DNA from: Candidatus Aenigmatarchaeota archaeon
GTDB lineage: Archaea; Aenigmatarchaeota; Aenigmatarchaeia; CG10238-14; SCSR01
Direction of reading: 5' to 3'
Length of the DNA: 64,000 nucleotides
NCBI GenBank assembly: GCA_030615205.1
Contig: JAUWZS010000002.1
Coordinates: 200,082 to 264,081 of the forward strand
A program made the position numbers and the translations under genes. The notes under the pieces were generated by a model. It did no database searches, was not told the DNA's origin, and saw only the letters and a program-made list of their open reading frames with translations. This document shows positions 16,001 through 30,634 of the stretch, one piece after another. The stretch's first letter is position 1. Every line of letters starts with the position of its first letter.

Positions 16001-17719
16001 TTTCCATATGGATGAATGGTTCTCAAATATTTTTGGCGAATATGTGGCATAGAAAATATTGCTGTTTTCAGGATCAATCTCAATATCATATGTATAATCA
16101 GGAGAGTTTGTGAGATAATGCCATTCCTTTTGGCCCGAATATTCAGATATGCCAACACCAATATTCGATACATAAATTTTGCTAGGATCGTCTTTTGCAA
16201 TTTCAAAATCAAAAATCTTTGCTGATGAAAATTCTTCAGCAATCCTCTGGAAAGTTCTTCCTGAGTCGTATGATTCGTATATGTTGGTCATCTCATCAAT
16301 CAATAGGATATGATTCGGATTGTGCGGGTCAACCCTCACTTCGTCTCCAGCACTGACCGGTGAGAAAGGTTCCCATGTTTCTCCCCAATCTCTTGTAGCA
16401 TATGACTCTTGAATCACATTTCCTGAAGTTAATACAATGTTTGGGTCTGTCGGATGAGTTATAATAATAGTGGGGGATGATGCAACAATATCCCCATCCA
16501 TCTTTTTCCATGTTGCCATGCCGTCTTCTGACTTAAGGATCCCCAAAGCCCATATCCCACCAGTCTTGCCATAGACTATGTTTGGGTTGTCAAAATCGAA
16601 TAAGAGTGTGTCTAACCCAAAGCTCATTTCGCTAAATTCCCTAATTGTAGGCGTATCAAAATATTCATAATTGGCACCATCTATCTTGAGTATGCTTGGA
16701 CCACCGTACGGGTTTAGGAGATAATAAGACGATCCGACAATATCAACATCGGTTATACCGTTAGATTGAAGAGTGAGGTCTGTTACAGGACTCCACGTTC
16801 TTCCTCTGTCATAGGATTCTCTTAAGAGCTCGGATATAGGAGACATAAATTCATGCACGATGTTATGTTTAAACGATATTACTATATGGTCTGGATTGTT
16901 GGGGTTCTGGACAATGTTTGCAATTATAAGGTCGTCCGACATACCAAGATCAACCCTGGACCAGGTATCACCAAGATTTTCTGAAAGATATAGGTGACCA
17001 TTTGTAAATTCCCCGCTGCCGTCTACATGTAAAATAATATTTACTAGGATTCTATTTCCAAGCGCGATAATGTTTGGAACTTTTTTATAGTACCCGAAAC
17101 CAATATCCTCTGGTGGCAAAACTAAATCTCTTAATTCAGACTCAGAGGGAGATATATCCTTCCAATTAAAATTCTCTAAAGCTAAATCAACATATTGTAT
17201 TTTGACATTTGTTTTGTCGTCAGAAGTCACAAAAAGTTTATTGTCACTAACTATCGCTTCATTGCACCATTCATTTAAAATTTTTACAAGATTTTTCTCG
17301 GTATCATAATAATAAGCGCCATCACCACAAGTGAATAATTTATCTTCAAAGGCTGCTACAGAAGACACATGAATATTTTCCAATTCACTTATTACTTGCC
17401 AGCTTTCACCCTTGTCTTCAGATTTGTGTATACCTTTGCTCGTTATTGCATATAATTCATGTGACATAGAAGGATTCTGTATTAGCTGGGTTACACGCCC
17501 TCCTGGAGGGCCATTCATAGACTGCCAGGAAATAGTTAAATCAATACAATCCCCGGGACAATTTTTATTTTCATCTAATTCACATATCCCATTGCCGCAG
17601 ACAGCTTTTTGTACAGATTCTTCAGGCTCTTTTACAGGTTGCTGAATACAGCCGCTAATAAAAATAATTCCAACAATTACCAATGCCAAAACCATCGAAC
17701 TAAGATATTTTGATTTCAT
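13004..17719 (-). CDS. Large lipoprotein with BNR/Asp-box (VPS10/sortilin-like) beta-propellers and an inserted lectin-like (DUF1080-type) domain
   Basis: IISGC lipobox and many S-x-D-x-G-x-T/S-W Asp-boxes. The insert runs FEDNFEDG...WYDFRIEL...VYVDDV. Confidence 0.85.
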   Translation of the reverse strand: MKSKYLSSMVLALVIVGIIFISGCIQQPVKEPEESVQKAVCGNGICELDENKNCPGDCIDLTISWQSMNGPPGGRVTQLIQNPSMSHELYAITSKGIHKSEDKGESWQVISELENIHVSSVAAFEDKLFTCGDGAYYYDTEKNLVKILNEWCNEAIVSDNKLFVTSDDKTNVKIQYVDLALENFNWKDISPSESELRDLVLPPEDIGFGYYKKVPNIIALGNRILVNIILHVDGSGEFTNGHLYLSENLGDTWSRVDLGMSDDLIIANIVQNPNNPDHIVISFKHNIVHEFMSPISELLRESYDRGRTWSPVTDLTLQSNGITDVDIVGSSYYLLNPYGGPSILKIDGANYEYFDTPTIREFSEMSFGLDTLLFDFDNPNIVYGKTGGIWALGILKSEDGMATWKKMDGDIVASSPTIIITHPTDPNIVLTSGNVIQESYATRDWGETWEPFSPVSAGDEVRVDPHNPNHILLIDEMTNIYESYDSGRTFQRIAEEFSSAKIFDFEIAKDDPSKIYVSNIGVGISEYSGQKEWHYLTNSPDYTYDIEIDPENSNIFYATYSPKIFENHSSIWKYSKYQEENSGWSEILRVENSKGITSIRFDESNPNKIYAGVVGEEGKIYFSNDKGETWGRLNEDFFFSTIHSQNQLAIDPTDEDIIYAAPWGAGLFKTVDSGETWTEIENIPTLSIASIVVDPANPNIVYAAGRAHPYLYKSADGGQTWQNIFYAGSMYSRLFKIKLDPSDHNTIYVSAFKHNAILGSLFKISDGEATDITGSIPRAIIDIAVDPTDSDTIYVSLHGENVYKTTDGGTSWQNLDSMPIVGTFDIEIDPSNPNILYAAAIMGRRCPEELLDPRFFPDVPAEDIGTHGVYKSEDGGLTWTNINQDVISKPCRALAIHPENSMVIYAGGAGGIYLTTDGGNTWTAQNSGLDYKSTGALVVSENKIYAGTRGGGVYVGDISDADYSVSWTATDGPKPEIYNIQIMIDSTDSDVIYASSYPGGMFKTMNGGTTWKDKNFFLPSFEVDDPVRQGYYRFAIDPTDSNQLYFATYDKGIYVSNDGADSQMPLFGDNNEMRGKPVTDILIDPADSNTVYVASEEGVFVTRNGGKSWGEMNNGLETLNIRSLKIISIEWPPFEDNFEDGNTDKWEFKDDWSVIQENGNYVLQGIGHNWVNADSESWTDYTFEAKVKLIQGGVHINFRKSGEGRYFLGFNDGGLYLTRQFNKWSELAELTDTRESYNLGQWYDFRIELSGSNIKVYVDDTLKIDYIDSEPLAGGAVAFETLDDSKVYVDDVSVRKTVTTESVLYAGTGGYGIYRFNQASNEWQNLGRTFGGGFWSAWERRMYQFSSILFDSDVPGKVYYGHFPSGFFISEDNGHTWKDSSLRLGNDGMFSLSMHPHNHDILFAGTYNGIVKSVDRGRTWEMISTGMPSEQWPYTVAIDDNNTNIMYTSTKNGQNKGFCHRNDFCGVVMKSTDGGENWFRIMNGLDDRSEFYTLIIYPPDHNVLFLSTNNGVYISRDAGNSWKSIDSGLPSTNNQVRDNVADNLALTPDNRYLILGLAEYGVWKADLSNVV

Positions 17720-17756
17720 TATAATTATAATTGATTTTCATTAGAATAAAATTGAG

Positions 17757-17792
17757 ATGCCTAGAGTAGGATTTGAACCAACATAAGGATTA
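17757..17792 (-). repeat. tRNA-Ser 3'-end copy (att-like)
   Basis: ATGCCTAGAGTAGGATTTGAACCAACATAAGGATTA; the tail is shared with the copy at 17946. Confidence 0.75.
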
Positions 17793-17794
17793 TT

Positions 17795-17896
17795 TTATTC
17801 CATGTTCTTCATGCACTCTTCTGAACAGTAGAATTTGTTTTTGAACTTCAGCTTCGAGAACGGTATTTCCTTGCCACACCAGTCACACTTCTTCAT
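17795..17896 (-). CDS. 33-aa Cys4 zinc-finger (TRASH-like) microprotein, copy 1
   Basis: MKKCDWCGKEIPFSKLKFKNKFYCSEECMKNME*; a near-identical paralog at 20090-20191 differs mostly at synonymous sites. Confidence 0.8.
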   Translation of the reverse strand: MKKCDWCGKEIPFSKLKFKNKFYCSEECMKNME

Positions 17897-17945
17897 ATAA
17901 TCAGTTTGGTCGACAGACTATAATTATCTAAATTAACTCCTTGTT

Positions 17946-17981
17946 ACGCCCAGGGTGGGATTTGAATCTACATAAGGATTA
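17946..17981 (-). repeat. tRNA-Ser 3'-end copy (att-like)
   Basis: ACGCCCAGGGTGGGATTTGAA is identical to 21208-21228. Confidence 0.9.
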
Positions 17982-17983
17982 GT

Positions 17984-18478
17984 CTACCTTTTTAATAATT
18001 TCATAAATTTCTCAGGGTTGGAGGGAGTAATCATATAATGTCTTTTATCATTGGTCGTTATCAGAATGCCATCACTTAGATTTGTCATTATCGTTCTGGT
18101 CCACCCTACATTTGGTATATAAAATATCCCAGAGTAAAGGCTTGCACCTATCCTTAAATGAAATGGAACTAAAGTCCTTTCAACCTTCTTTATATCCTTT
18201 AATTTGAGTTTAATGGTTGTAAAAAGAGACCACGAACTCAGGACATCGTTTTGGATAACATATGTTGTTTTGTACAAGCCATAGGTAGTGACAACCAAAA
18301 GAGATATAACAAAAATTATTGTCCCAAAAAAGAAGATTCGAGCAAGAAAGACTTCTGATGTGATACCTTACCAGAATCCAATTATAATAAAGAGAGCTGC
18401 CGAGAAAACTGTTAACACGACATACATCCCACCAATCCATTCACTAATTCTGGGTTTGTTAATCACATATTTCTTCAT
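17984..18478 (-). pseudogene. Membrane protein with bacterial PH-like domain, interrupted by an in-frame TAA at 18368-18370
   Basis: The ATG at 18478 (MKKYVINKPRISEWIGG...) is in the same frame as ORF 17984-18298 across one stop codon. The C-terminus ends YMITPSNPEKF. Confidence 0.7.
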
Positions 18479-18538
18479 AATCAAATTATGTATTTAATTA
18501 TCAAAAAGGTTTCCCAAAGAAAAAAATGTGAAATATTA

Positions 18539-18580
18539 ACGCCCAAGGTGGGTGTCATCGGCTTGAGGTAGATTTTGGTG
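18539..18580 (-). repeat. tRNA-Ser 3'-end copy within a ~42-bp direct repeat shared with 20257
   Basis: ACGCCCAAGGTGGGTGTCATCGGCTTGAGGTAGATTTTGGTG. Confidence 0.85.
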
Positions 18581-18596
18581 TCACATCATTATCTTA

Positions 18597-19838
18597 TTAA
18601 GAGTATCTGCGGCTTCTCCTATAGTTTGTCCTGTTCATCACTCTTCCACGGTCACCGAATCTCCTACCTCTGCGACCGCCGAATCTCCCGCTGTACATGT
18701 CTGGTCTGCGAACGCCTCTCCTGAACGGCACTCTCCTGAATTGGCCGACATGCATCTTCTCGATTTCGTAGTCGAACAGCCTTATTATCCTGCTGAACGA
18801 AGGGTGGTCGTCCCTGCACAGGAGTGAGATGGCTTTTCCTGTCTTCCCTGCCCTTGCGGTTCGGCCTATTCTGTTCGTGTATTCTTCGGAATACTTCGGT
18901 ATGGAGTAGTTGAAGATATGGCTGACGTCATTGATGTCCAATCCCCTCGCAGCCACGTCTGTGGCCACAAGGAATCTGAACCTGCCGTTGTGGAACATGT
19001 CCATCACTTTTTCGCGCCTGGCTTGGGTCATGCCTCCATGCAGTGATCCGGCATTGATATTGTTGCTTTTCAGGTTGCTCGAGATCGAGTCAACGTCTCT
19101 TCGCGAGTTGCAGAAGATTATGCCGAGCTCTGGGTTCTCTTTGTCTATCAGATGTACAAGGAGGGAGAACTTCTTGGCACGGTCGACATCGCAGTAGTAC
19201 TGCTTCAGCATGTTGTCCTGCACCTTGTTCGCTGTCCTTATCTTCTTCGCGTCTCTTGTGAAACGATCCCTTATCCTCATCAATGCAGATGGCATGGTCG
19301 CGCTGAACAGCAGAGTCTGCCTGTCCTTCGGCAGGCTACGTGCCACGAACTCTATGTCTTCGACGAAACCCATGTTTATCATCTTGTCAGCTTCGTCGAG
19401 CACGAATATGCGGATGATGTCTGTGCGGAGCGTGCCGCGTCGCATGTGGTCCATTACGCGGCCGGGTGTACCGACCACTATCTCTGCTTTTCTCAGCCCA
19501 CTAACCTGCGGCCCCATCGCAACTCCTCCGTACACTGTCTGCACGAAAAGGCCTTTGCGCTTGGAGAACTTTTTCAGCTCGCCTGCTATCTGCAAAGCCA
19601 GTTCCCTTGTCGGAGCCAACACCATTGCTTGTAGGCCGCGGCCCTTATCGACCCTTTCTATCATAGGTATTCCGAAAGCAGCGGTCTTTCCAGATCCTGT
19701 CTCGGACTGGCCGATCACGTCATGTCCTTGTTTGATAAGAGGTATTGTCTCGTACTGTATCTTCGTGGGTTTTTCATATCCCATGTCATAGATCGCGCCC
19801 AGTACATTCGAATCTATATTCAAGTCTTCAAATTTCAT
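18597..19838 (-). CDS. DEAD-box RNA helicase
   Basis: ETGSGKT, PTRELA, TPGR, DEAD, SAT, ARGLD and NRIGRTAR motifs, plus an Arg/Gly-rich tail. Confidence 0.96.
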   Translation of the reverse strand: MKFEDLNIDSNVLGAIYDMGYEKPTKIQYETIPLIKQGHDVIGQSETGSGKTAAFGIPMIERVDKGRGLQAMVLAPTRELALQIAGELKKFSKRKGLFVQTVYGGVAMGPQVSGLRKAEIVVGTPGRVMDHMRRGTLRTDIIRIFVLDEADKMINMGFVEDIEFVARSLPKDRQTLLFSATMPSALMRIRDRFTRDAKKIRTANKVQDNMLKQYYCDVDRAKKFSLLVHLIDKENPELGIIFCNSRRDVDSISSNLKSNNINAGSLHGGMTQARREKVMDMFHNGRFRFLVATDVAARGLDINDVSHIFNYSIPKYSEEYTNRIGRTARAGKTGKAISLLCRDDHPSFSRIIRLFDYEIEKMHVGQFRRVPFRRGVRRPDMYSGRFGGRRGRRFGDRGRVMNRTNYRRSRRYS

Positions 19839-20089
19839 ATTTTAATCTCACCTATATTTGCTTCTCTTTTTATTTTTTGTTTTCCCAAAGTCACAGAAGC
19901 AACAGAATTAGTATGTCACGCCGAATCAGCATCAACTAACGCTATTTGTCACACGCTTTGTACCTTGTCTTTTCTTTTCTAATCTATCATGAAATGGACA
20001 GTATTTAAACATTTGCATCTGTTTGGATTTGTCCAGCTTTGGTGTCGACCACTAAGCAAGAAAAATTCTTCTTTCAGAAGGATTGATTT

Positions 20090-20191
20090 TCAATCCATAT
20101 TCTTCCTGCACTCTTCTGAACAATAGAAGTAGCCTTTGAACTTGAGTTTGGAAAAAGGTATGTCCTTGCCGCACCAATTGCATTTCTTCAT
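20090..20191 (-). CDS. 33-aa Cys4 zinc-finger microprotein, copy 2
   Basis: MKKCNWCGKDIPFSKLKFKGYFYCSEECRKNMD*. Confidence 0.8.
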   Translation of the reverse strand: MKKCNWCGKDIPFSKLKFKGYFYCSEECRKNMD

Positions 20192-20256
20192 ATAATCATT
20201 TAAGCAGGAAGGCTTTAATTGTCCAGAACCTCTTTGAAAAATTCCTCAAGGAATGA

Positions 20257-20298
20257 ACGCCCAGGGTGGGAGTCATCGGCTTGAGGTGGATTTTGGTG
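20257..20298 (-). repeat. tRNA-Ser 3'-end copy (att-like)
   Basis: ACGCCCAGGGTGGGAGTCATCGGCTTGAGGTGGATTTTGGTG; the first 15 nt are identical to the tRNA end. Confidence 0.88.
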
Positions 20299-20358
20299 GA
20301 ACAACGTTCTTTTACCAAGAAGAATTTTTCAAGGAAATCTACATCAGCAAGAAAAAAG

Positions 20359-21150
20359 TTACATGCTTTTCAACAGAAGTTTTCCTCTCTGCCAATCGTT
20401 TATCAGCGCGAAGTATACACGTTTTTCATCTATCTTCCCACCTTTTTTCAACATGTTCCTGGCTTTTCCTATCTCCTCGATAATATCTTCAAACTCTTTG
20501 TCACCGATTTTAATGCTGTAGAATTCTTCAAGACGTTTTATCCCACTGTCGAGGAAGATCGTGACTATCTCCCTCGCAACCGCTTCAGGATCAGCGATCT
20601 TTGAGGGGTCCAATGTGCCGATTAGCGCGTGCTTGAGTTCGCTGTCTTCCCCTGTTAAAGGAATGATGCCGGGCGTGTCGATGAGTCCCACGTCAGAGCT
20701 GACGCGTACCCATTGGAATCCCCTTGTCTGGCCTGGTCTTGGACCTGTCTTTGCCCTTCTACGGCCGGCCAGTGCATTGATAAGCGATGATTTGCCTGTG
20801 TTCGGATAACCTATGACACCAATTTTCAGGAACTCGCCAGGCCTGGACCGTTTTTTAACTATTTCGAATATCTTCTTTTTCAGGAGAGTTATACCGCGTC
20901 GCTCTCTACTAGAGACAGACACACATGGAAAAGTTTTGTCAAGCGTTTGTCTGTGCTGTTTGACTGTCTTTTCCGAAACTAAATCCGCTTTGTTTATTAC
21001 GAGAATCAGTGGTTTCCCAGCCAGTTTGGCAAGGCGCTCTGCATCCTTGTTCCTTGTAAGTTCAGGCATCCTCGCGTCCAGCACTTCTACAATTACGTCC
21101 GACTCTTCGATAACTTCTTTAACAATGTCCCAAAAATCTCTCATCGACAT
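20359..21150 (-). CDS. Circularly permuted GTPase, RbgA/YlqF family
   Basis: DARMP, NKAD, GYPNTGKSS and DTPG appear in G4-G1-G3 order. Confidence 0.93.
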   Translation of the reverse strand: MSMRDFWDIVKEVIEESDVIVEVLDARMPELTRNKDAERLAKLAGKPLILVINKADLVSEKTVKQHRQTLDKTFPCVSVSSRERRGITLLKKKIFEIVKKRSRPGEFLKIGVIGYPNTGKSSLINALAGRRRAKTGPRPGQTRGFQWVRVSSDVGLIDTPGIIPLTGEDSELKHALIGTLDPSKIADPEAVAREIVTIFLDSGIKRLEEFYSIKIGDKEFEDIIEEIGKARNMLKKGGKIDEKRVYFALINDWQRGKLLLKSM

Positions 21151-21208
21151 AAGAATTGATTAGTATTTCTATGAATAAGGTTTTTGAGTTTCTTTATTGA
21201 GGAATAGA

Positions 21209-21345
21209 CGCCCAGGGTGGGATTTGAACCCACAAGGACCGAAGTCCGCTAGCTCTCTGCGTTTTTTATTTTTAGCAAGAGCTTAGCAGGCTCGCACGGC
21301 TTTACGCAAAAGCCTTAGTGCCCTACCGGGTTAGGCGACCTGGGC
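21209..21345 (-). tRNA. tRNA-Ser(GCT) with two BHB introns (29/30: 21292-21315; 37/38: 21255-21283)
   Basis: Acceptor stem GCCCAGG/CCTGGGC, discriminator G73 and a long variable arm. Removing both introns gives CTAGC-CTGCTAA-GCTAG. Confidence 0.88.
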
Positions 21346-21446
21346 TTGCTTAATTTTAATTGATTGTTGCTTCCTTAAATTCTTTTCACGAATTTTAAAT
21401 ATTAATTCTTACATATTCATATTAAGATTATCGAGGTGAAAATTTA

Positions 21447-21734
21447 ATGCCTATAACTGTAAAAGATATTGGAGATATGTTTGGAAAGGATGTTTTCACT
21501 AATAAAGGATTCTACGCTGGCAAGGTATCGGATATGGAATTCGACCTTTCACGCTTCAAAGTCCGATCAGTCGTTATCGAGGCTGCTAAAGGGGGTATGC
21601 TTGGAAAGCTGGTCGGTGGGAAGAAAGGAATAATCATACCTTATCCAATGATACAAGCAATTGGCGATGTAGTGCTCATAAAGCACATAACTAGCGCGGA
21701 GATATCAGAAGAGACAGAAGCAGTAGAAGCGTAA
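21447..21734 (+). CDS. PRC-barrel protein (CdpB-like)
   Basis: GKDVFTNKG..GKVSD and IIPYPMIQAIGDVVLI motifs; adjacent to ftsZ. Confidence 0.88.
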   Translation: MPITVKDIGDMFGKDVFTNKGFYAGKVSDMEFDLSRFKVRSVVIEAAKGGMLGKLVGGKKGIIIPYPMIQAIGDVVLIKHITSAEISEETEAVEA

Positions 21735-22064
21735 GTGTAGAATTGTAAATAGCAAAAAAACTTTTCAAAACATCCGAAAATTAAGACATCCTTATCCTTA
21801 TTTTACTTAATTCAATGCTGTATTATGTACTAAATTCTAAATAAAATTAAGACTCTTCAAGACTCGACTCCGGGAAAAATAAAAAATCACCAATCTTCTT
21901 CATCATCTAACAATGGGTCCCATATATCCTCGTCCATGAAACCAACCAGTGCTTTTCTTCTCTCTTCTTACCCCTTTGGCTTTTTCTCCAACTTTACGCT
22001 CGTTAAGTTTCCCTTCTCCTCCAAAAAAAAGAAAAATAAGGGAGAGGGCGTCCAAAGATAGCTT

Positions 22065-23213
22065 CTATCTTATGACGTCTATTCCCAAAGTTTGGCTAAT
22101 TTCCTTGACTACAGGCTTCTCAAAGCTAACTGGCCCCAAGATGTATGGAGATTTGACACCAGTTATTATGCTGATGACCTGCACTTTACCCTCGAACTCA
22201 GGCAAAATGCGAGCTCCCCAGAATACCTGTGCAGACGGATCTAGATGCTGTGCTACTGCCTCGCCAATCAAATTGACTTCATCCAAACGCAAGTCTGGCC
22301 CGCCAGTTATGTGTATCAACGCACCTGCCGCGCCTGTGTAATCGACTTCAAGCAGCGGATTAAGTAAAGCTCTTGTTATAGCATCCTTAGCACGATCGCT
22401 ACTGTTGCTTTCGCCAACACCAATCGCGGCCACGCCACCTGCATGCATTACTGCTCGGACATCTGCGTAGTCCAAGTTTACTAAGCTTGGAAGTGTTATT
22501 GTTTCTGTAATGCCTTTTACCATGCTTGCTATGAGCTCGTCTGCTACTGCAAATGCATTCTGGATGGTCATGTTGCCTGCATATTTCAACAGCTTGTCGT
22601 TTTCGATAACGATGGCTGTATCGCATACTTGTCTCAATGCAGCCAAACCGTCCTCCGCTTTTGCAATACGAGAGCCTTCGAGCTTGAATGGCATTGTAAC
22701 TACTGCTATTACTATTGCGCCTTGCTGTTTAGACATCTCACATACCACAGGTATAGCTCCTGTACCAGTCCCCTTGCCAAGTCCTGCCAAAGCGAATACT
22801 AGATCTGCGTCTTCTATTGCATCTTTGATTTCATTCCTACTTTCTTCAGCACATTTTCTGCCAATCTCTGGGTAACCGCCACATCCCAAACCACGAGTAA
22901 GTTCTTTTCCAATTAATATCTTTTTGTCAGCCTTACCAACAGCAAGATGTTTAGCATCGGAATTTAATGAAATTGTATATGCACCTTCTATGCCCATCTC
23001 TGTCAGCCTAGTGACTGCGTTCTGTCCAGCACCACCGCAACCGACCACGATTATCTTCGCCTTTTTGACTGAAAAACCGAACTCTTGCTCGGCCAGCTTG
23101 TAGTAATCTACATTAGCATAGGTAGCACCAGAAGTGCTTTCTAGTTTGAACCTCGTTTCTGGAGAATCTTTGCCAAGGGTTTTGTTGAGAGCGCCCTTTA
23201 TTATTGAATCCAT
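22065..23213 (-). CDS. ftsZ: Cell division protein FtsZ
   Basis: VGCGGAGQN, GLGKGTGTG, PFKLEG and NLDYADVR motifs. Confidence 0.96.
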   Translation of the reverse strand: MDSIIKGALNKTLGKDSPETRFKLESTSGATYANVDYYKLAEQEFGFSVKKAKIIVVGCGGAGQNAVTRLTEMGIEGAYTISLNSDAKHLAVGKADKKILIGKELTRGLGCGGYPEIGRKCAEESRNEIKDAIEDADLVFALAGLGKGTGTGAIPVVCEMSKQQGAIVIAVVTMPFKLEGSRIAKAEDGLAALRQVCDTAIVIENDKLLKYAGNMTIQNAFAVADELIASMVKGITETITLPSLVNLDYADVRAVMHAGGVAAIGVGESNSSDRAKDAITRALLNPLLEVDYTGAAGALIHITGGPDLRLDEVNLIGEAVAQHLDPSAQVFWGARILPEFEGKVQVISIITGVKSPYILGPVSFEKPVVKEISQTLGIDVIR

Positions 23214-23667
23214 GTTCTTTCCTCCTTTTCATTTTCTCCTTTCATTCCTCTCATTTCCTCAATTTCATTTGGTGCAAAATATGTTTTGCACAATCGAAAA
23301 CTGTTTATAAAGTCTTCGACTAATCTATGTTTACAAAGAATTAGTGGTATAGAACCATCTGTACCCAAAACCTAAACCTAAAACCTAATACTTCTTTGTT
23401 CTAACCCTAATAAATCGTTTTATATACTGTCTCCTATATTTCGTCGTATTGTAATCCATATTAATAACAATATGGTATATCGCTTTGTATACTGTATCGA
23501 CTACAGGATTTAACGCCTAATCGTGATAATTTTTCCACTAATTTGCAATAACATAGGGCTTTGTTTAATAAGTGTAGAAATTAGCTGACTTTTTAAACAG
23601 AATGCTTAGTTTTAAACAAAAATATAATCTTTAAATAGATGATTTCATTTTTATTGACTAGATTGAA

Positions 23668-24138
23668 ATGTTGAGAGAATATAATTTAGAAGCTATTGCT
23701 CACTATGCCATAGGTCTTAGTATACTTCCTATGTCAATACATTTTGGTGAAAATGCAGTTAAAAGAGAATTGTTGAAAATGTATCATCTAGCTTGGGCAG
23801 CAGAATATGGAGAAGAGAGTATGCGAAATATTAATACGGCGATGGGCTTCGCTGAAACATACAGATGTGGTGAAATATACAAATTCGATGAAGGGGAAGA
23901 GGAAGTGTGGAAAAGAGTAGTAAGGGCAATTGATCTTGCTGTACACATGTCAAAAGTTGAAGATACAGTCTCACGTTTTTGGTTGTCATGGGGGCCTTTT
24001 GAAATTTTAACGGGTCAGTATGAAGAAGGACTTGAAAGAAAGTTGAGGTTTTCCAAAGCACTAAAAGAAATTGGATTTGACAAAATGTTGGAAGAAGAAC
24101 TAAAGAGTGGACGAAGGAAAATAGATGACTTTTTTTAA
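23668..24138 (+). CDS. Hypothetical protein
   Basis: 156-aa ORF with a TATA-like box upstream; no motif recognised. Confidence 0.65.
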   Translation: MLREYNLEAIAHYAIGLSILPMSIHFGENAVKRELLKMYHLAWAAEYGEESMRNINTAMGFAETYRCGEIYKFDEGEEEVWKRVVRAIDLAVHMSKVEDTVSRFWLSWGPFEILTGQYEEGLERKLRFSKALKEIGFDKMLEEELKSGRRKIDDFF

Positions 24139-24324
24139 ACAAACACGACTTATTAAACAAAGCCATAACATAGCAAAGATTTAAATATTCCTTATTAGAA
24201 ATTTAACAAAGGTGTAAAAAGTGAAGGGTGAATGTTTTAATATCCGCTGATTCTGACTTTTATTTAGCCCTTATTTTAATTCCTAGAACAATACATAAAC
24301 AAATTAGAGATAGGAGGAGTTATT

Positions 24325-25689
24325 ATGAGCGATGCTTCAAAGAAAGATAAAATTACAAAGAAAGATAAGACTATGGACAAAGCGATCGAAAAAGGCGATT
24401 TCATAGAAATTGGAGAGATTCTGCACGGCAAAAAGACCGGCAGCGTAAGTTTGCGTGGCTGGCTGGCGCACAAGCGATCGAGCGGCGGTATACAGTTCAT
24501 TATACTCCGCGATCCGAGTGGGTTTATTCAATGCACGCTCAGCAAGGACATTGATCCGAAAGTATTTGATGAAATTGAGGCACTGCCAATAGAATCTGTT
24601 ATTGCAATCGATGGTGAAGCAAGAGCAGACAAGCGTGCGCCGAGCGGGCATGAAGTTTCGATTAAAAAAGTAGATATCCTTTTCAAAGCTGAGCCGGATT
24701 GGCCGATTGTAAAGAAAAAACACGGACCTGAGTTTTTACTTGACAAGCGACACTTATGGCTGCGCAGCGACAAAATGCAAGCTATGCTTCGCGTGCGGTC
24801 AAAGCTTATTGAAATCGCTCGCCAGTGGCTTTTAGAGCACGGATATATAGAATTCCAATCACCGATATTTATCACAGCTGCATGCGAAGGCGGTTCCACA
24901 CTTTTCCCTGTTGAATATTTCGGCCGACAAGCCTATTTGACGCAAAGCTGGCAGCTGCATGCAGAAGCAGCCATATCAAGCATAGGCAAGATTTTCACAC
25001 TTGCACCAAGTTTTCGTGCAGAAAAGTCGCGCACACGCAGGCATCTGGCTGAATATTGGCATTTGGAGGCTGAAGAGCCTTTTTGTGATTTAGAAGGAAC
25101 TATGAAGATGCAAGAGCAGTTTGTATCGCATATATGCCAGCACTTGGCAAAAGAAATGCCAGAGCAACTCAAACTTTTCGGCCGCGATCCGAAAGAGATG
25201 TTAGCTGTAAAGCATCCTCTTCAGCGAATAACGTATGATGAAGCCATTGAAATAATAAAGAAAGGAGGCGGTGATATCAAGTGGGGAGACGATCTGACTT
25301 GGGTGCACGAGAAGATACTTACAAAAAAGCATAAAGTGCCGTTTTTCGTTTACAAATACCCGAAAGGTGTAAAAGCATTTTATCATATGCCAGATCCAAA
25401 AGATCCGCGAGTCACGCTCTCAGCAGACCTTATGGCACCCGAAGGGTACGGCGAACTCACTGGCGGTGGGCAGAGAATACACGATTTTAAACAGATGATG
25501 AAAAGGTTGAAGGAAGAAAAACTGGATCCGAAAGCGTATGAGTGGTATATCGACCTGCGTAAGTGGGGGAGCGTACCGCATTCAGGATTTGGTATGGGTA
25601 TCGAGCGTATGCTAATGTGGATACTAAAACTCGAACATATCCGAGATGCTATTGCATTCCCACGCACGCTCACAAGACACTATCCATAA
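24325..25689 (+). CDS. asnS: Asparaginyl-tRNA synthetase
   Basis: OB fold, YLTQSWQL, FRAEKSRTRRHL and PHSGFGMGIER motifs; followed by tRNA-Asn. Confidence 0.93.
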   Translation: MSDASKKDKITKKDKTMDKAIEKGDFIEIGEILHGKKTGSVSLRGWLAHKRSSGGIQFIILRDPSGFIQCTLSKDIDPKVFDEIEALPIESVIAIDGEARADKRAPSGHEVSIKKVDILFKAEPDWPIVKKKHGPEFLLDKRHLWLRSDKMQAMLRVRSKLIEIARQWLLEHGYIEFQSPIFITAACEGGSTLFPVEYFGRQAYLTQSWQLHAEAAISSIGKIFTLAPSFRAEKSRTRRHLAEYWHLEAEEPFCDLEGTMKMQEQFVSHICQHLAKEMPEQLKLFGRDPKEMLAVKHPLQRITYDEAIEIIKKGGGDIKWGDDLTWVHEKILTKKHKVPFFVYKYPKGVKAFYHMPDPKDPRVTLSADLMAPEGYGELTGGGQRIHDFKQMMKRLKEEKLDPKAYEWYIDLRKWGSVPHSGFGMGIERMLMWILKLEHIRDAIAFPRTLTRHYP

Positions 25690-25759
25690 AATTAAAACAA
25701 AACAAGATAAGAATTTAAACAACGTAAGAAATAGTGTATAATAAAAAATGTAATGGGAT

Positions 25760-25831
25760 GCCTCGGTAGCTTAGTGGTAGAGCAACTGGCTGTTAACCAG
25801 TAGGTCATGCGTTCAAATCGCATCCGAGGCG
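25760..25831 (+). tRNA. tRNA-Asn(GTT)
   Basis: Acceptor GCCTCGG/CCGAGGC; anticodon arm ACTGG-CTGTTAA-CCAGT. Confidence 0.95.
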
Positions 25832-25907
25832 TTTTTTAATTTTTTAAATTTAGAAATTTCAATAAAACTAATATTTTTATATAGCAGGAACTGAATCTTT
25901 ACATCGG

Positions 25908-25981
25908 GGGCCCGTGGTATAACTTGGATAACACACCTGGCTTCGGACCAGGAATTGCGCGTTCAAATCGCGTCGGGCTCA
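25908..25981 (+). tRNA. tRNA-Arg(TCG)
   Basis: Acceptor GGGCCCG/CGGGCTC; anticodon arm CCTGG-CTTCGGA-CCAGG. Confidence 0.92.
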
Positions 25982-26172
25982 CTTTTTAAGCTAATCTTAG
26001 AAAAAAAGATGCATTATATGGCGAGGTTCTAATATATAAATATTTTTCAAATCTATTCTGAACGATAACAATAAAAATAACTAAAAAACACTATAATAGG
26101 ATTCACCCAGCATATGAAGACTTATATGCTTAACATATAGAGATAGTTGAGGTAGTTCAAAGAGGAAATAAT

Positions 26173-26865
26173 ATGAAATACTCGAAAGGTATAACCAAAT
26201 CGGACAGAATAAAAGGCTTTATAAGCGATGCTATAAAGGACCCGAAAGGTATCGTCGAGTCTGTAAAGTTTGGTTTAAGACTAAGACTAAGATCTTTTAA
26301 TAATCCTGTGTTTGCAAAAAAAATCGAAGGTCTATTCTTACCCAGCAACGCAATAATAATGTGCATACTCGCGCTTGCTTCGTATATTTTCATATTCGGT
26401 CCTGGCGCGCATCCAACCTTTAGCACAATAGTCTTGTTTATGGCATTTTCCTCTTTGAGTTTTGTTGTAATGGAATTCATAAGCAAGCATGTGACTGACC
26501 CTGAAAAATTCAACATAACCTCACTAAGGTTGACTATAGTATCCCTAATAATACCTTTAATGCTTATGCATACGGTCGGTATGCCACAGATGTTCGTATT
26601 TGGCATAATAACTTTTCTGATAATGTCGCCATTGGTTTTTGTCATACGCTCAAAATGGAAGATAAGCGGACATACGTGTACCTTTACAGCTATAACTACA
26701 ATTATGTCTATGGCAAACGGTTGGTTTGCCGCATTATATCTTATAATACCGGTAATAAGCTGGTCCAGATTGAAACTGAAAGCACATACAAAAGCGCAAG
26801 TAATCGTTGGCATGTTGATCGGCTTTTTCACACCATTGACTTTTTCTGTAGTGCTCCTGGCGTAA
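26173..26865 (+). CDS. Membrane protein, PAP2-like superfamily
   Basis: Multiple TM helices with KISGH and WSRLKLKAHT..QV..G motifs. Confidence 0.75.
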   Translation: MKYSKGITKSDRIKGFISDAIKDPKGIVESVKFGLRLRLRSFNNPVFAKKIEGLFLPSNAIIMCILALASYIFIFGPGAHPTFSTIVLFMAFSSLSFVVMEFISKHVTDPEKFNITSLRLTIVSLIIPLMLMHTVGMPQMFVFGIITFLIMSPLVFVIRSKWKISGHTCTFTAITTIMSMANGWFAALYLIIPVISWSRLKLKAHTKAQVIVGMLIGFFTPLTFSVVLLA

Positions 26866-26930
26866 ATTACTTCCAGTGTAAAAAGCTTATTTTTATAAAT
26901 AGAAAAGAAAGAATTTTCTATACATCATCA

Positions 26931-27005
26931 GCTCCCTTAGTCTAGCCCGGTCAAGGATTTCGGTTTCTCGAACCGACGACGGGGGTTCAAATCCCCCAGG
27001 GAGCA
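26931..27005 (+). tRNA. tRNA-Glu(CTC)
   Basis: Acceptor GCTCCCT/AGGGAGC; anticodon arm TCGGT-TTCTCGA-ACCGA. Confidence 0.95.
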
Positions 27006-27018
27006 TTTTGATTTTATT

Positions 27019-27104
27019 GCAGGGGTCCCGTAGTCTGGTCAATCGGGCGAGGCTTAGGACCTCGTGGCTTAGTGCCTTCGTGAGTTCAAATCTCACCCCC
27101 TGCA
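27019..27104 (+). tRNA. tRNA-Leu(TAG)
   Basis: Acceptor GCAGGGG/CCCCTGC; anticodon arm CGAGG-CTTAGGA-CCTCG; variable arm present. Confidence 0.95.
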
Positions 27105-27205
27105 TCATTTTTGTAGAAAAATCCTTCTTAATCGTTAGCAGACCAAACCGAAGGCGAAGCGTTGAGCAAGTATCGCTGAATTTTTATAATATTCAAGTTT
27201 ACTAA

Positions 27206-27745
27206 ATGTATATGAACAAAATAAATCATTTTATGTTTGCTGTAGGTTTGTGCTTGATTTTTTTTGAATTAAATTTTATATTAAATTTTATCAATCTGGC
27301 TTTCATAATCATATTTTCATTAATATTTGGAGTTTTGATTGACTATGATTACAAATTTAATAGAAAAGCTCCATGGTATCATAAGAGAACATGGATACAA
27401 GAGCCATTAGGATTTATTTTGGTTGGTCTGCCTCTCGCATTTATTTTAAGTTTATTTAACAAAAACTTCTTTATTTTAGTTTTGGCTCCATATTTTTCTC
27501 ATGTACTTCTAGATTATCTATGCATTTTTGGAACATACCCGCTCGCGCCTTTTTCAAAAATAAAGAAAAAGGAAGGTTTTGGCATTTTTATTCCAGATGA
27601 TTTGTTTATTAAATCTGAAAATCCGAGAAATTGGACAAGAAGAGTTAAAGTTAAGAAGATTAAAGGAATTTCAGAAAATTATTTTACAATATTTAATTTA
27701 ATTTTACTTATTACTATTCTTCTTTTCAAACTCAAAATTTTCTAA
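27206..27745 (+). CDS. Membrane-bound metal-dependent hydrolase (YdjM/DUF457-like)
   Basis: N-terminal His, LIDYD, RTWIQEP and SHVLLD motifs. Confidence 0.75.
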   Translation: MYMNKINHFMFAVGLCLIFFELNFILNFINLAFIIIFSLIFGVLIDYDYKFNRKAPWYHKRTWIQEPLGFILVGLPLAFILSLFNKNFFILVLAPYFSHVLLDYLCIFGTYPLAPFSKIKKKEGFGIFIPDDLFIKSENPRNWTRRVKVKKIKGISENYFTIFNLILLITILLFKLKIF

Positions 27746-27796
27746 TGTGATCCTAGATATAAGAAAAGTCCATGATTTAACTACAACTAGTATGCA

Positions 27797-27810
27797 CACC
27801 CCCTGCATTA
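27797..27810 (+). repeat. tRNA-Leu 3'-end copy
   Basis: CACCCCCTGCATTA compared with tRNA end CACCCCCTGCATCA. Confidence 0.75.
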
Positions 27811-27877
27811 CACCTTTAGTGAGTTTTCAGTGACACAAATTGCATCTCTTTTTAAGTTTTTCTCATAAAATAATATC

Positions 27878-28522
27878 ATGATAATAAAAGCAGTCATATT
27901 CGATTGGGGAGATGTTTATCTCAATTGGAAAAGAGAATTTTGGAATGTTATAGCTGAAAGAATAAATGTGGGAATAGACGCTTTGGAAGAAGAAGTTAAG
28001 AAATATTGGGATTTATTGGGTAAGGGAACTATTGACGATAAAGAATTTTGGAACAGATTGGGAGAAAGTTTAAAAATAAAGATTCCTGATAATTCGGAGA
28101 TGTGGGTTGAAGAAAGATTTAGAGAAGATTTTTCGGTGAACAAAGGTGTAGAAGCTATTGCAAGAAATATGGCGAAATTTGGGTACAAAACAGCTTTACT
28201 TTCTAACACTGAAAAGACTAGTCTTAGTTATGGAAAAAGAAATGGGTGGACAAAATACTTCGATATAATAATAGCCTCTTGTGATTTCGGTATAATGAAA
28301 CCAGATGAAAAGATATATAAAATAGCTTTAAATAAAATTGGAGAAAGCCCAGAACATTGTATTTTTATAGAAAATGATATCAGATACACAGAGGTGGCGA
28401 AAAAATTAGGAATGAACACCATTTTATTCGACAATAGAAAGCAGGATATAAATTATCTAAAGACAGAATTGATTAAGCTTGGTGTAAAGAGAGAAATTTT
28501 TGAAAATTTGAGTAAGTCTTAA
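27878..28522 (+). CDS. HAD-family hydrolase
   Basis: VIFDWGDV, LLSN, KPD and FIEND motifs. Confidence 0.9.
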   Translation: MIIKAVIFDWGDVYLNWKREFWNVIAERINVGIDALEEEVKKYWDLLGKGTIDDKEFWNRLGESLKIKIPDNSEMWVEERFREDFSVNKGVEAIARNMAKFGYKTALLSNTEKTSLSYGKRNGWTKYFDIIIASCDFGIMKPDEKIYKIALNKIGESPEHCIFIENDIRYTEVAKKLGMNTILFDNRKQDINYLKTELIKLGVKREIFENLSKS

Positions 28523-28606
28523 TGATTTCAAATTTCCAGTGTTACGATTGTAAGTGCACTGGATTAACATTCTGTGCATTGTGTGTATAAGAATAATAAT
28601 CGCATG

Positions 28607-28622
28607 CACCCTCTGCATCATT
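28607..28622 (+). repeat. tRNA-Leu 3'-end copy
   Basis: CACCCTCTGCATCATT compared with CACCCCCTGCATCATT (15/16 identical). Confidence 0.75.
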
Positions 28623-28696
28623 GTCTTTCAACCAGAAAAGATACTTATTTCTTTTATCAATAATTATTCACATCCTTCGTATCCTTCTTATCTTTT

Positions 28697-30259
28697 TTAT
28701 CTCTTTGACGTCCTTCTTTTTGGCTTTATTTTTAGTTTTATTTTTGGTCGTGTTATTCCGAATGTTCTACCAGCAATTTTTATCATTTTAAGATCTTCAC
28801 GCGTTAGATAGCCAGTCAAACGCAGCAAAGCAGTAAACAGCACTATGCTGACAACAACCCCAAGCAGTATGAAAAGTAGGTTCGATTTTGGCACAAGGAA
28901 AAGTACGAATGCCATTATTGCTGTGGGCAGCAAAACCTTTGGGAGATTGTTGTAAACAGATACCTTCAATTCTTTTTTAAGGAAATATGGAACTAGTAGC
29001 ATTGATGTGAAACCTGTAAGCGTCAGGGCAAGAGCAGCGCCGGTGAACCCAAACAAAGGTACGAGTACGAACAGCGATAAACTGTATTGTATAGCGGCTG
29101 CAGACATCAATAGCCCAGAAAGTTTTGGTTTGCCCATTCCTACAAGTACTGATGATAGGTTGTAGCTGAACATAAGCATAAAGGTACCGATTATCAGAAT
29201 CTGCAACGGTATTACGGCTCCTGCAAAAGCGGCTCCGTATACTACAAGAATAAGCGGTTGTGCCATTGATAAAATAATCAAGGTTAAAGGTATCCCTATG
29301 AGCAAAGGATATTTTATTGCTATTTTTACATATTTTCCCAGCAACTGCTTGTCTCTTTTTGCGTAAGCTTCTGCTATGGCCGGGATTATTGGTAATGAGA
29401 AAGAAGTCATATAAAATAGTATGCTCGATGTTGTGTCAGCCACGCTGTATACACCCACATCTGCATAATCAAAAAACATCTTTATCACAACTATATCTAA
29501 ACTCTTCATAACATTGAAAGATATCATGGCGAGAGATACGAAAAAGCCAAAACCAAAAATTTTAGCGAACTGCCTAAAATCCTTTGACATCCCAACTCTT
29601 TTGCTACGAAAGAGCTCGCCTATGCTAAATGGGAACAGCTTCCCCAAGCGCGATCTAAGAAAATAAGCAGAAATTGCGAGCTGCCAAACAGTACCAACAA
29701 CTAATAACACAGGTAACGTGTAAGATGGAAAGCCAAACGATATTAGCATGACTCCAACAACGAGTATTATTATGATTTTACTAGAATCTATAATCGAGAG
29801 ATAATTGCTCTTCTGGAAAGAGCCCAGCACAGAAGCCAAAGCATCTTTGGTTCCTGAAAAAAGAAAAGATACGCCAATTGAGAGCACCGTTATCTTCATT
29901 ATCGGGTCAGGTATATGAAAAGCGAGGACTACCAATATAAGAAACACAATAACGCCAATTGCGGTCAGGTATTTTAAAGCAGTTGAGAAATAGCTGCCGA
30001 GTTCCCATCCTCTTTTTACAACATATTCAGAACCATATTTTATCAAACCTCCAAACAGTCCGCCAAAAATGAAGGCCCATGCAAAAGTGTACAGAGATTG
30101 CGCAGTATTAAATATACCATATCCAACCGGCCCGTAAGTTCTGCTTACTATAACGCTCCAAACCCAGCCAAAAATACCACAAAGCACCATAAGCGTTAAA
30201 AACCACACGCCACCTGCAACGAGTCGTTCTGGTCCAGATTGATCAAAAACATCTTTCAT
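28697..30259 (-). CDS. Flippase (Wzx/MOP superfamily)
   Basis: About 14 TM helices; SRTYGPVGYG and DIVVIKMF..ADVGVYSVA motifs. Confidence 0.9.
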   Translation of the reverse strand: MKDVFDQSGPERLVAGGVWFLTLMVLCGIFGWVWSVIVSRTYGPVGYGIFNTAQSLYTFAWAFIFGGLFGGLIKYGSEYVVKRGWELGSYFSTALKYLTAIGVIVFLILVVLAFHIPDPIMKITVLSIGVSFLFSGTKDALASVLGSFQKSNYLSIIDSSKIIIILVVGVMLISFGFPSYTLPVLLVVGTVWQLAISAYFLRSRLGKLFPFSIGELFRSKRVGMSKDFRQFAKIFGFGFFVSLAMISFNVMKSLDIVVIKMFFDYADVGVYSVADTTSSILFYMTSFSLPIIPAIAEAYAKRDKQLLGKYVKIAIKYPLLIGIPLTLIILSMAQPLILVVYGAAFAGAVIPLQILIIGTFMLMFSYNLSSVLVGMGKPKLSGLLMSAAAIQYSLSLFVLVPLFGFTGAALALTLTGFTSMLLVPYFLKKELKVSVYNNLPKVLLPTAIMAFVLFLVPKSNLLFILLGVVVSIVLFTALLRLTGYLTREDLKMIKIAGRTFGITRPKIKLKIKPKRRTSKR

Positions 30260-30337
30260 ATATTATTATTATTTTTGGAAGAATTATTATTCTTTAGAAA
30301 GTATTTTTATCCAACTGATTAATATTATTCAGGTGAT

Positions 30338-30634
30338 TTGTTGAAGACATTGAGAAAAATTGATCCGATGTCTACCGCAAAAGTATCAGCTATAGGAGGA
30401 GTTATCTGGGGACTAATAGTCGGGATACTAATGGTCGTCGGTACAGGTGTCACAGAATACATGGGAAGATTTTTCATGGGTTATCAAAGATTGATGCCCA
30501 TAGGAGGAACTGTTGCCCTGATAGCATTGCCGATAGCATACGGGATAACAGGCCTCATAGGCGGTTACATCGTTGCTTTAGTGTATAACTTCATTGCAGA
30601 GAAATTCGGCGGCATAAAAATTGATCTAAAATAA
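30338..30634 (+). CDS. Small membrane protein (DUF3566-like)
   Basis: LRKIDPMS.AK ... YNFIAEKFGGIKIDL. Confidence 0.75.
   Translation: MLKTLRKIDPMSTAKVSAIGGVIWGLIVGILMVVGTGVTEYMGRFFMGYQRLMPIGGTVALIALPIAYGITGLIGGYIVALVYNFIAEKFGGIKIDLK

Follow-up and report, generated by a model that had tools for sequence, protein, structure and literature searches.

Two genes lying directly behind an intact tRNA-Leu(TAG) gene in a small archaeal genome were probably acquired by two successive site-specific integrations into the 3′ end of that tRNA gene, a HAD-superfamily phosphatase gene first and a YdjM/DUF457-family membrane hydrolase gene second, with loss of the integrase and the backbone genes afterwards. 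The window in this study is a stretch of 64,000 nucleotides (nt) from Candidatus Aenigmatarchaeota archaeon (NCBI GenBank assembly GCA_030615205.1, contig JAUWZS010000002.1, positions 200,082 to 264,081 of the forward strand). It is part of a 350-kb contig of a metagenome bin, here called G000, which comprises 1.17 Mb in 36 contigs and is 88.5% complete; the genomes of relatives measure 0.3-1.7 Mb. An earlier note, made from the letters of the window alone, had described the locus as an array of single-gene units captured at the tRNA end. This insertion model is right in outline, and its mechanism is most likely tRNA-targeted integration of the ordinary kind, after which each insert was reduced to its cargo gene. 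The features of the locus, with the copies of the tRNA end named as left and right attachment sites (attL and attR) and base composition given as guanine-plus-cytosine (GC) content, are as follows.

26931..27005, + strand: tRNA-Glu(CTC), called by ARAGORN and Rfam, 12 nt 5′ of tRNA-Leu(TAG)
27018..27106, + strand: tRNA-Leu(TAG), intact, putative integration target (ARAGORN 27018-27106; Rfam 27019-27104, 49.9 bits)
27094..27109, + strand: core copy 1 (attL), CACCCCCTGCATCATT, the final 13 nt of the tRNA and 3 nt past it; reference copy
27110..27796, + strand: unit 1, 687 nt, 27% GC, proximal, presumably the younger insertion
27206..27745, + strand: YdjM/DUF457-family membrane hydrolase gene, 179 amino acids (aa), 25.6% GC (PF04307, E 8e-11)
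27797..27808, + strand: core copy 2, CACCCCCTGCAT, 12 exact nt, putative attR of unit 1 and former attL of unit 2
27809..28606, + strand: unit 2, 798 nt, 31% GC, distal, presumably the older insertion
27878..28522, + strand: HAD-superfamily phosphatase gene, 214 aa, 31.0% GC (PF00702, E 2e-15; PF13419)
28607..28622, + strand: core copy 3 (putative outermost attR), CACCCTCTGCATCATT, 15/16 with a single C>T, and a TCATT flank as at the tRNA
28697..30259, − strand: polysaccharide flippase gene (Polysacc_synt/MatE), the conserved right neighbour (Pfam; synteny in relatives)

Direct repeats of the 3′ end of tRNA-Leu delimit the inserts, and the tRNA gene has remained intact. All three copies lie on the same strand within 1.5 kb, and an independent repeat search also recovered the family (27094-27109, 27797-27812 and 28607-28622). 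The last ~12 nt of tRNA-Leu(TAG) would constitute the recombination core. The earlier note had the 16-nt tRNA end reappearing at both 27797 and 28607. This is accurate for 28607-28622, which is 94% identical to the tRNA end (15/16), and overstated for 27797-27812, where identity is 81% (13/16) and the continuous exact match covers the first 12 bases only. The ATGCAC context pointed out beside both copies is indeed present, but in a register that is offset by 2 nt (ATGCA+CACCCCC versus ATG+CACCCTC), and the 5-bp palindromes that it forms (an ATGCA/TGCAT hairpin) are not significant against shuffles (z -1.45 and -1.29). Each unit holds a single open reading frame (ORF), at 27206-27745 and 27878-28522, as had been claimed. 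This one intact gene has 51-99 nt of spacer on either side, and the copies at 27797 and 28607 each lie 51-84 nt past a stop codon. A TATA-like box is found 20-26 nt ahead of the start in both units (TTTTTATAA, ~20 nt 5′ of the YdjM start).

Chance is excluded as the origin of the tRNA-Leu repeat copies. With at most one mismatch, the 12-mer of the tRNA end has four matches in the window (the fourth, at 40701, is unrelated), compared with 0.18 expected, and none of 100 shuffles reaches four. In the whole assembly, the exact 12-mer occurs at three sites: at the tRNA-Leu(TAG) end, in the copy at 27797 and at the end of a tRNA-Leu with an intron that lies on a different contig. The 16-mer with at most one mismatch occurs only at the tRNA-Leu(TAG) end and at 28607. 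Outside tRNA-Leu genes, the 1.17-Mb assembly carries the motif at 27797 and 28607 only, and these counts dispose of the possibility, raised in the earlier note, that the motif recurs at chance frequency elsewhere in the genome. For the 1591 nt that follow tRNA-Leu, the local base composition predicts 2e-6 such 12-mers by chance. Furthermore, downstream copies of a tRNA's own last 12 nt were found for three of the 55 tRNAs that ARAGORN calls in the assembly: tRNA-Leu(TAG) has two such copies, tRNA-Lys(TTT), 6 kb away, has three, and a tRNA-Arg on a small contig has one.

The two cargo genes are also foreign in composition. The GC content of 27100-28620 is 27-33%, against 38-46% on both sides. 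Among the 568 ORFs of at least 150 aa on the two large contigs, the YdjM gene stands at the 0.2 percentile of GC content and the HAD gene at the 4.8 percentile, and the flanking genes are ordinary (flippase, 39.7%; PAP2-like gene, 38.1%). Of 117 other genomes of the order, 10 were found to contain a homologue of YdjM, and neither of the two same-genus relatives was; identity reaches 58-60% at best. The protein next in rank to YdjM is 76% identical. HAD-family genes are present in 88 of these 117 genomes, the closest to this one being 38% identical, and two paralogues within the same genome are 35-40% identical. The patchy occurrence of YdjM and the 38% ceiling for HAD within the order mean that the two genes are not syntenic in relatives; conserved synteny in distant relatives was what the earlier note had named as fatal to its model. 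Nearer relatives of the HAD protein (59-74% identical) are found among unbinned metagenome proteins only. A scan of metagenome contigs gave three HAD loci with 21-residue matches only, and a scan of genome contigs with the HAD alignment gave 80 loci at 29-36% identity, mostly Planctomycetota; viral contigs scanned with YdjM and with the HAD alignment contained no relatives.

Five of the ten YdjM loci in relatives, all in one genus, follow the 3′ end of a tRNA-Val at a distance of 120-650 nt and in convergent orientation. These tRNA-Val-adjacent homologues have no bounding tRNA-end copy of at least 10 nt, and the neighbourhood is only a hint. No integrase was found in the stretches examined near YdjM homologues or near other small arrays.

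The same site in related genomes provides the next line of evidence. The relatives have a common gene order of FtsZ, AsnRS, tRNA-Asn, tRNA-Arg, (PAP2), tRNA-Glu, tRNA-Leu(TAG), flippase, RNase H, NifU and eIF2-alpha; in the window, a PAP2-like gene, tRNA-Arg, tRNA-Asn and AsnRS lie left of the array, and a search of 25500-29000 with Rfam identified four tRNAs and nothing else. In G022, from another genus of the family, the site is empty, and only 18 nt separate tRNA-Leu from the flippase ORF, compared with 1590 nt here. In G002, of the same genus, a TBP paralogue (PF00352, E 4e-62), which shares 66% and 58% identity with the two TBP genes of G000, lies between tRNA-Leu and flippase; no tRNA-end copy of at least 8 nt accompanies it. 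The contig of G001 stops at tRNA-Glu. An alignment of the locus thus yields both the empty site and the different cargo that the earlier note had predicted, and its view that the two genes are insertions at the tRNA end is borne out. The spacer between tRNA-Glu(CTC) and tRNA-Leu(TAG), 12 nt here, measures 1-4.3 kb in five relatives, and neither an integrase nor a tRNA-Glu-end repeat was found in these longer spacers. Because the spacer is variable, the site is empty in one relative and the cargo differs among relatives, the whole tRNA cluster is a hotspot of gene flux. The spacer genes, listed by relative, are a methyltransferase; DUF192 and EamA; ArsR and a cupredoxin; MGMT and HD; and an amino-acid permease and HAD.

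Integrases suited to such insertions are present in the lineage. The tyrosine-recombinase domain (PF00589) has 14 matches in the G000 assembly and none in the window. A tblastn search of 16000-30500 with eight integrases gave no match better than E 0.01, in agreement with the earlier statement that the units carry no integrase, and no split integrase halves of the SSV kind were found flanking the inserts. Of the 70 genomes of the taxonomic family, 32 contain members of a family of ~400-aa integrases, which was found in neither of the two same-genus relatives. G000 has three members, 41-43% identical to the integrase of G020: two with a C-terminal zinc ribbon lie directly behind tRNAs on large contigs (C26:10964-12342 and C29:397339-398682, the tRNAs being an intron-bearing tRNA-Phe and one that ARAGORN labels Leu), and the third is a fragment. 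The integrase of G020, 401 aa long (PF00589, E 1.8e-22), begins 78 nt past a tRNA-Leu(TAG) whose end is the same as here, and G094 shows this layout too. Of 30 integrase loci, 13 have a tRNA immediately upstream in the same orientation (by ARAGORN label, Leu 6, Glu 3, Arg 2, Thr 1 and Ser 1). The earlier note had left the choice between a general process and several recombinases, and the occurrence of ~400-aa integrases behind these different tRNAs fits the latter. Bounded elements were identified at three of the eight loci on longer contigs: they measure 7.8, 8.6 and 5.2 kb and are bounded by repeats of 15, 15 and 11 nt, respectively, each being the very end of the tRNA. Because complete elements are bounded by tRNA-end repeats of 11-15 nt, the 12-16-nt repeats of the window are of the kind and length that this integrase family leaves. 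The genes of the complete elements are mostly without a family (ORFans), with a winged-helix protein, a TFIIB-type zinc ribbon and ATPases among them.

Integrase-less remnants at tRNA-Leu ends also occur in other genera. The exact 11-mer of the tRNA-Leu end has 121 matches in the 70 family genomes, compared with 4 for a reversed control, and same-strand pairs less than 5 kb apart occur in five genomes (this one, G003, G007, G071 and G103). The pairs of G003 are three tandem tRNA-Leu genes; at C4:1666-2247, three intron-bearing tRNA-Leu-like genes are spaced ~215 nt apart, and ARAGORN calls the third Ser. G007 carries two integrase-less units of 1.2-1.3 kb, each at a different tRNA-Leu gene; the left ends of the two units share 99% identity over 372 nt, and they resemble the integrase-proximal end of the G020 element at 82-83% identity. 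In G071 there is a 525-nt unit that contains two small ORFs, and in G103 two copies of attR are separated by 320 nt. In G007, G103 and G059, the core is preceded by a conserved right arm (elsewhere in our analysis the count is four other genera). Read by eye, the right arm of the tRNA-Leu elements (G103, G059) and the left arm (G020) carry ~21-nt near-perfect reverse complements that flank the core, which looks like a palindromic integrase-binding layout; a palindrome test on the diverged copy of G007 was not significant, nor were inverted repeats in the arms of rebuilt attP sites. A dedicated process that captures single genes, as proposed in the earlier note, is not borne out by these comparisons, in which complete elements measure 5-9 kb and the other remnants range from ORF-less to two small ORFs. 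Because the elements are of this size and the integrase-less remnants vary, ordinary integration with subsequent loss of the backbone is at least as good an explanation of the units.

According to the scheme that we favour, the 1.5 kb behind tRNA-Leu(TAG) would be a small tandem island that arose by two integrations into the last ~12-16 nt of the tRNA. The integrases would have been of the tRNA-end-specific tyrosine type of ~400 aa with a zinc-ribbon tail that is common in this archaeal family. At each integration, the tRNA end would be rebuilt (attL), and the opposite end of the insert would receive a partial copy (attR). The element with the HAD gene would have entered first, because copy 3 keeps TCATT and has one C>T, as expected of a displaced, functionless tRNA end; its attR would be this outermost copy with the native downstream flank, in which the C>T arose later. 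The YdjM-bearing element would have entered second, because copy 2 is exact over 12 nt and is then followed by different bases; it would have displaced the HAD element from the tRNA, and both its cores are exact. The integrase and backbone genes that these particular units may once have had would have been lost afterwards in a streamlined genome, and what is left would be the two cargo genes, each behind a promoter-like A/T box of its own and held in place by the att scars on either side ("gene capture").

Several observations weigh against this scheme. Each unit is cleanly one intact gene with almost no spare DNA, which random decay would not obviously yield, and neither unit retains even an integrase fragment detectable at the above tblastn threshold. 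The cargo consists of ordinary cellular-type enzymes, whereas the complete elements carry mostly ORFans. The two attR copies of the window lack the conserved right arm of the tRNA-Leu elements. The 5′ regions of the units are unlike the integrase-upstream regions of 14 elements (280/300 and 298/300 shuffles score as well), and no autonomous parent with matching arms was found among the tRNA-Leu element arms and integrase-upstream regions compared. None of the three G000 integrases lies at tRNA-Leu(TAG); a far-end repeat was not found within 11 kb and 3.3 kb for the two that adjoin tRNAs, and five of the eight integrase loci examined have no detectable bounding repeat.

The compactness of the units is what a second explanation accounts for. 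According to this explanation, the units are themselves mobile, as integrase-less, promoter-bearing, single-gene cassettes with a tRNA-end core that are moved in trans by tRNA-specific integrases. Units of 687 and 798 nt, each with one intact gene, a TATA-like box before the start, att sites at both ends and no recombinase gene, are consistent with it, as are the three family integrases elsewhere in G000. Comparison with other samples is also consistent with it. The assembled contigs of four runs were compared over 25500-30500. In X1, one 113-kb contig covers this range with zero differences and evenly, at a depth of 38.7; this run possibly represents the source sample and is then not independent. 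The other three runs, each from a different other study, gave the following.

X2: YdjM unit 27109-27650, 8 differences and 2 gaps in 544 nt (98.2%); PAP2, AsnRS and flippase pieces, 89.5-96.7%
X3: YdjM unit 27421-27747, 2 differences in 327 nt (99.4%); flanks, 85-95%
X4: YdjM unit 27308-27484, 0 differences in 177 nt (100%); no flanks compared except tRNAs

The DNA of the YdjM unit is thus 98.2-100% identical in X2-X4, compared with 85-97% for the flanks in X2 and X3, which suggests a recent spread of the unit, the pieces being short (177-544 nt) and possibly derived from the donor rather than from relatives. Moreover, the X2 contig stops ~4 nt past the left boundary of the YdjM unit. The X3 contig diverges from the window immediately past the YdjM stop (27747), and its loose end resembles diverged intergenic sequence, so that no junction was drawn there. 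The contigs of X2-X4 do not reach 27671-28672, the HAD unit, and say nothing on its absence. No excision joint, excised circle, restored empty site or second copy of a unit was seen in the assembled contigs of the four runs, and such contigs cannot reveal rare excision.

The tRNA-Lys(TTT) gene of the window also bears on this second explanation, since its array consists of three single-gene units, two of which have a common 27-nt right arm, and this arm recurs in two other genomes beside different tRNA-end-like cores. Against the mobility of the units stand the lack of a conserved arm between the two tRNA-Leu units, the weakness of the inverted-repeat tests on their arms (63/1000 and 357/1000 shuffles as good), the absence of arms common with an autonomous helper (they differ from the tRNA-Leu element arm and from the integrase-upstream regions), and the small att-bounded units of other genera, which are not single intact genes. 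We regard the trans-mobile units as an unlikely explanation, if one to be kept in mind. A broader version, in which tRNA 3′ ends would dock a pool of minimal single-gene cassettes shuttled in trans by the tRNA-specific ~400-aa integrases, with the YdjM unit in circulation and the tRNA-Lys array as a second platform, is about as unlikely.

The tRNA-Lys array was described as follows.

21209-21345, − strand: tRNA-Lys(TTT) with a 61-nt intron, own-end copies at 20258-20269, 18540-18551 and 17947-17958

The genes enclosed in the array (17947-21345, − strand) encode a GTPase (MMR_HSR1, 263 aa), a DEAD-box helicase (413 aa) and a bPH-domain protein (104 aa). With GC contents of 46% and 51% (98th and 99.8th percentile), the GTPase and helicase genes are outliers on the high side, in contrast to the GC-poor genes at tRNA-Leu. 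The common 27-nt arm lies to the left of the first two end copies, and the repeats are 12-21 nt long. In G002, the orthologues are 81-82% identical and lie on two different contigs without this arm. The arm itself was found at G011:C1 13280-13930 (− strand as oriented), G002:C1 12352 and G011:C2 12550-12840, followed each time by a 12-14-nt core that resembles the end of a different tRNA; ARAGORN called no tRNA within 14-16 kb of these arms. A second conserved arm type precedes further cores, and one arm pair encloses only ~75 nt. The recurring arms are possibly the ends of a family of small mobile units with swapped cores. Just beyond the array, 13004-17719 (− strand) encodes a 1571-aa protein with BNR/sortilin-type repeats.

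A third explanation dispenses with insertion. In this case, the motifs would be signals of RNA processing or termination, or products of local duplication, beside genes that relatives have lost. The position of each copy 51-84 nt past a stop codon and the ability of both copies to fold a 5-bp ATGCA/TGCAT hairpin speak for it. However, the hairpins are no better than those of shuffles, as noted above, the motif occurs nowhere else outside tRNA-Leu genes, the cargo genes are compositional outliers that both same-genus relatives lack, and complete integrase elements of relatives are bounded by the same kind of repeat. We consider this explanation very improbable.

Casposons insert at the 3′ ends of tRNA genes with a duplication of ~14-15 bp by means of a Cas1-type integrase, and tandem arrays are possible. 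The units resemble them in tRNA 3′-end insertion, short duplication and tandem arrangement, and the repeats could accordingly be target-site duplications of a transposon-like, casposon-like inserter of which the units would be non-autonomous derivatives. When the repeat is read as a 14-mer, each copy is 13/14 identical to the tRNA end, and a weak terminal inverted repeat flanks unit 1 (GATTTAACTACAA / TTGTAGAAAAATC; 63/1000 shuffles as good), with none at unit 2 (357/1000 shuffles as good). However, no Cas1 (PF01867) was found in the assembly (88.5% complete), the units are below 1 kb, and the repeat length is not fixed (12 versus 16 nt here, 12-21 nt in the tRNA-Lys array). Moreover, the family contains tyrosine integrases for just this target. 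An origin of this kind is hardly credible. Equally hard to credit is an assembly chimera that joined pieces of different organisms at a common tRNA end, which could be suspected from the deviant GC of the units and from a metagenome bin of 36 contigs, some with bacterial-looking, CCA-encoding tRNAs, but is opposed by the unbroken X1 contig (with the above proviso that X1 may be the source), by repeats of 12-16 nt that are shorter than usual assembly words, and by synteny on both sides that agrees with relatives.

The small contigs C2, C11, C13, C19, C22 and C28 of G000 carry CCA-encoding, bacterial-looking tRNAs, and two of these contigs have bacterial-type integrases of 343-365 aa. One of the bacterial-type integrases adjoins a tRNA-Arg(CCT), the end of which recurs 1461 nt downstream. 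These contigs may stem from contamination of the bin or from a separate replicon.

The locus can be compared with several known systems. Cis-mobilisable elements (CIMEs), known together with tandem accretion from bacterial genomic islands, are att-flanked, lack an integrase, lie in tandem at a tRNA-type target and can be moved in trans. The units described here are likewise att-flanked, without an integrase and in tandem at a tRNA, and a related integrase could in principle move them, but they differ in that no autonomous parent with matching arms was found. Integron cassettes are single-gene units that are inserted in one orientation at one site, with a short recombination site at the end that forms an attC hairpin, and they depend on IntI, attI and a common promoter. 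The present units are similar in having a single gene each, one orientation, stacking at one site and a short, recombination-site-like end; unlike integrons, they have no adjacent integrase or attI, no attC-type hairpin, apparent promoters of their own and a tRNA end as their site. The locus also differs from the "suicidal" integrase elements of the SSV type, in which integrase halves flank the insert.

Archaeal mobile elements are known to integrate in tandem at one locus and to lose the integrase after integration (review PMC8371274). The likeness to those elements lies in the tRNA 3′-end target, the tRNA-end direct repeats, the stacked insertions and the remnant that lacks an integrase; the difference lies in the small DPANN-type host, the cores of 12-16 nt and the reduction of each remnant to one intact cellular-type gene. 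In Prochlorococcus, tycheposon islands adjoin tRNAs, the elements are separated only by partial tRNA copies, and newcomers push older elements outward, with degenerate remnants and extra partial tRNAs (bioRxiv 10.1101/2020.12.28.424599). The tRNA adjacency, partial-tRNA separators, outward displacement, remnants and adaptive cellular-type cargo of these islands are likewise seen or proposed here. Unlike the present units, which are integrase-less and below 1 kb, the tycheposons are bacterial and have their own integrase and replication module; their integrase family is different from the one considered here, in a contrast that does not rest on a direct comparison of the two families. With regard to DPANN integrases and attachment sites, none of the papers listed by one full-text query looked on topic, as judged by title and the start of the abstract.

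The site is therefore a small gene-capture hotspot of an already known general kind. If the units were mobile on their own, they would represent a new gene-cassette system in archaea, and a docking of cassettes at tRNA 3′ ends would, if true, be a tRNA-based functional analogue of the integron or of tycheposon satellites. Under the preferred explanation of two integrations and subsequent reduction, the locus offers a single-gene view of how very small, symbiont-type archaeal genomes would gain accessory genes, that is, by integration at a tRNA end and stripping to the useful gene. The analysis also identifies a widespread family of tRNA-targeting integrases in this lineage, which leave short cores of 11-16 nt, and such cores provide a means of mapping gene flux in such genomes.

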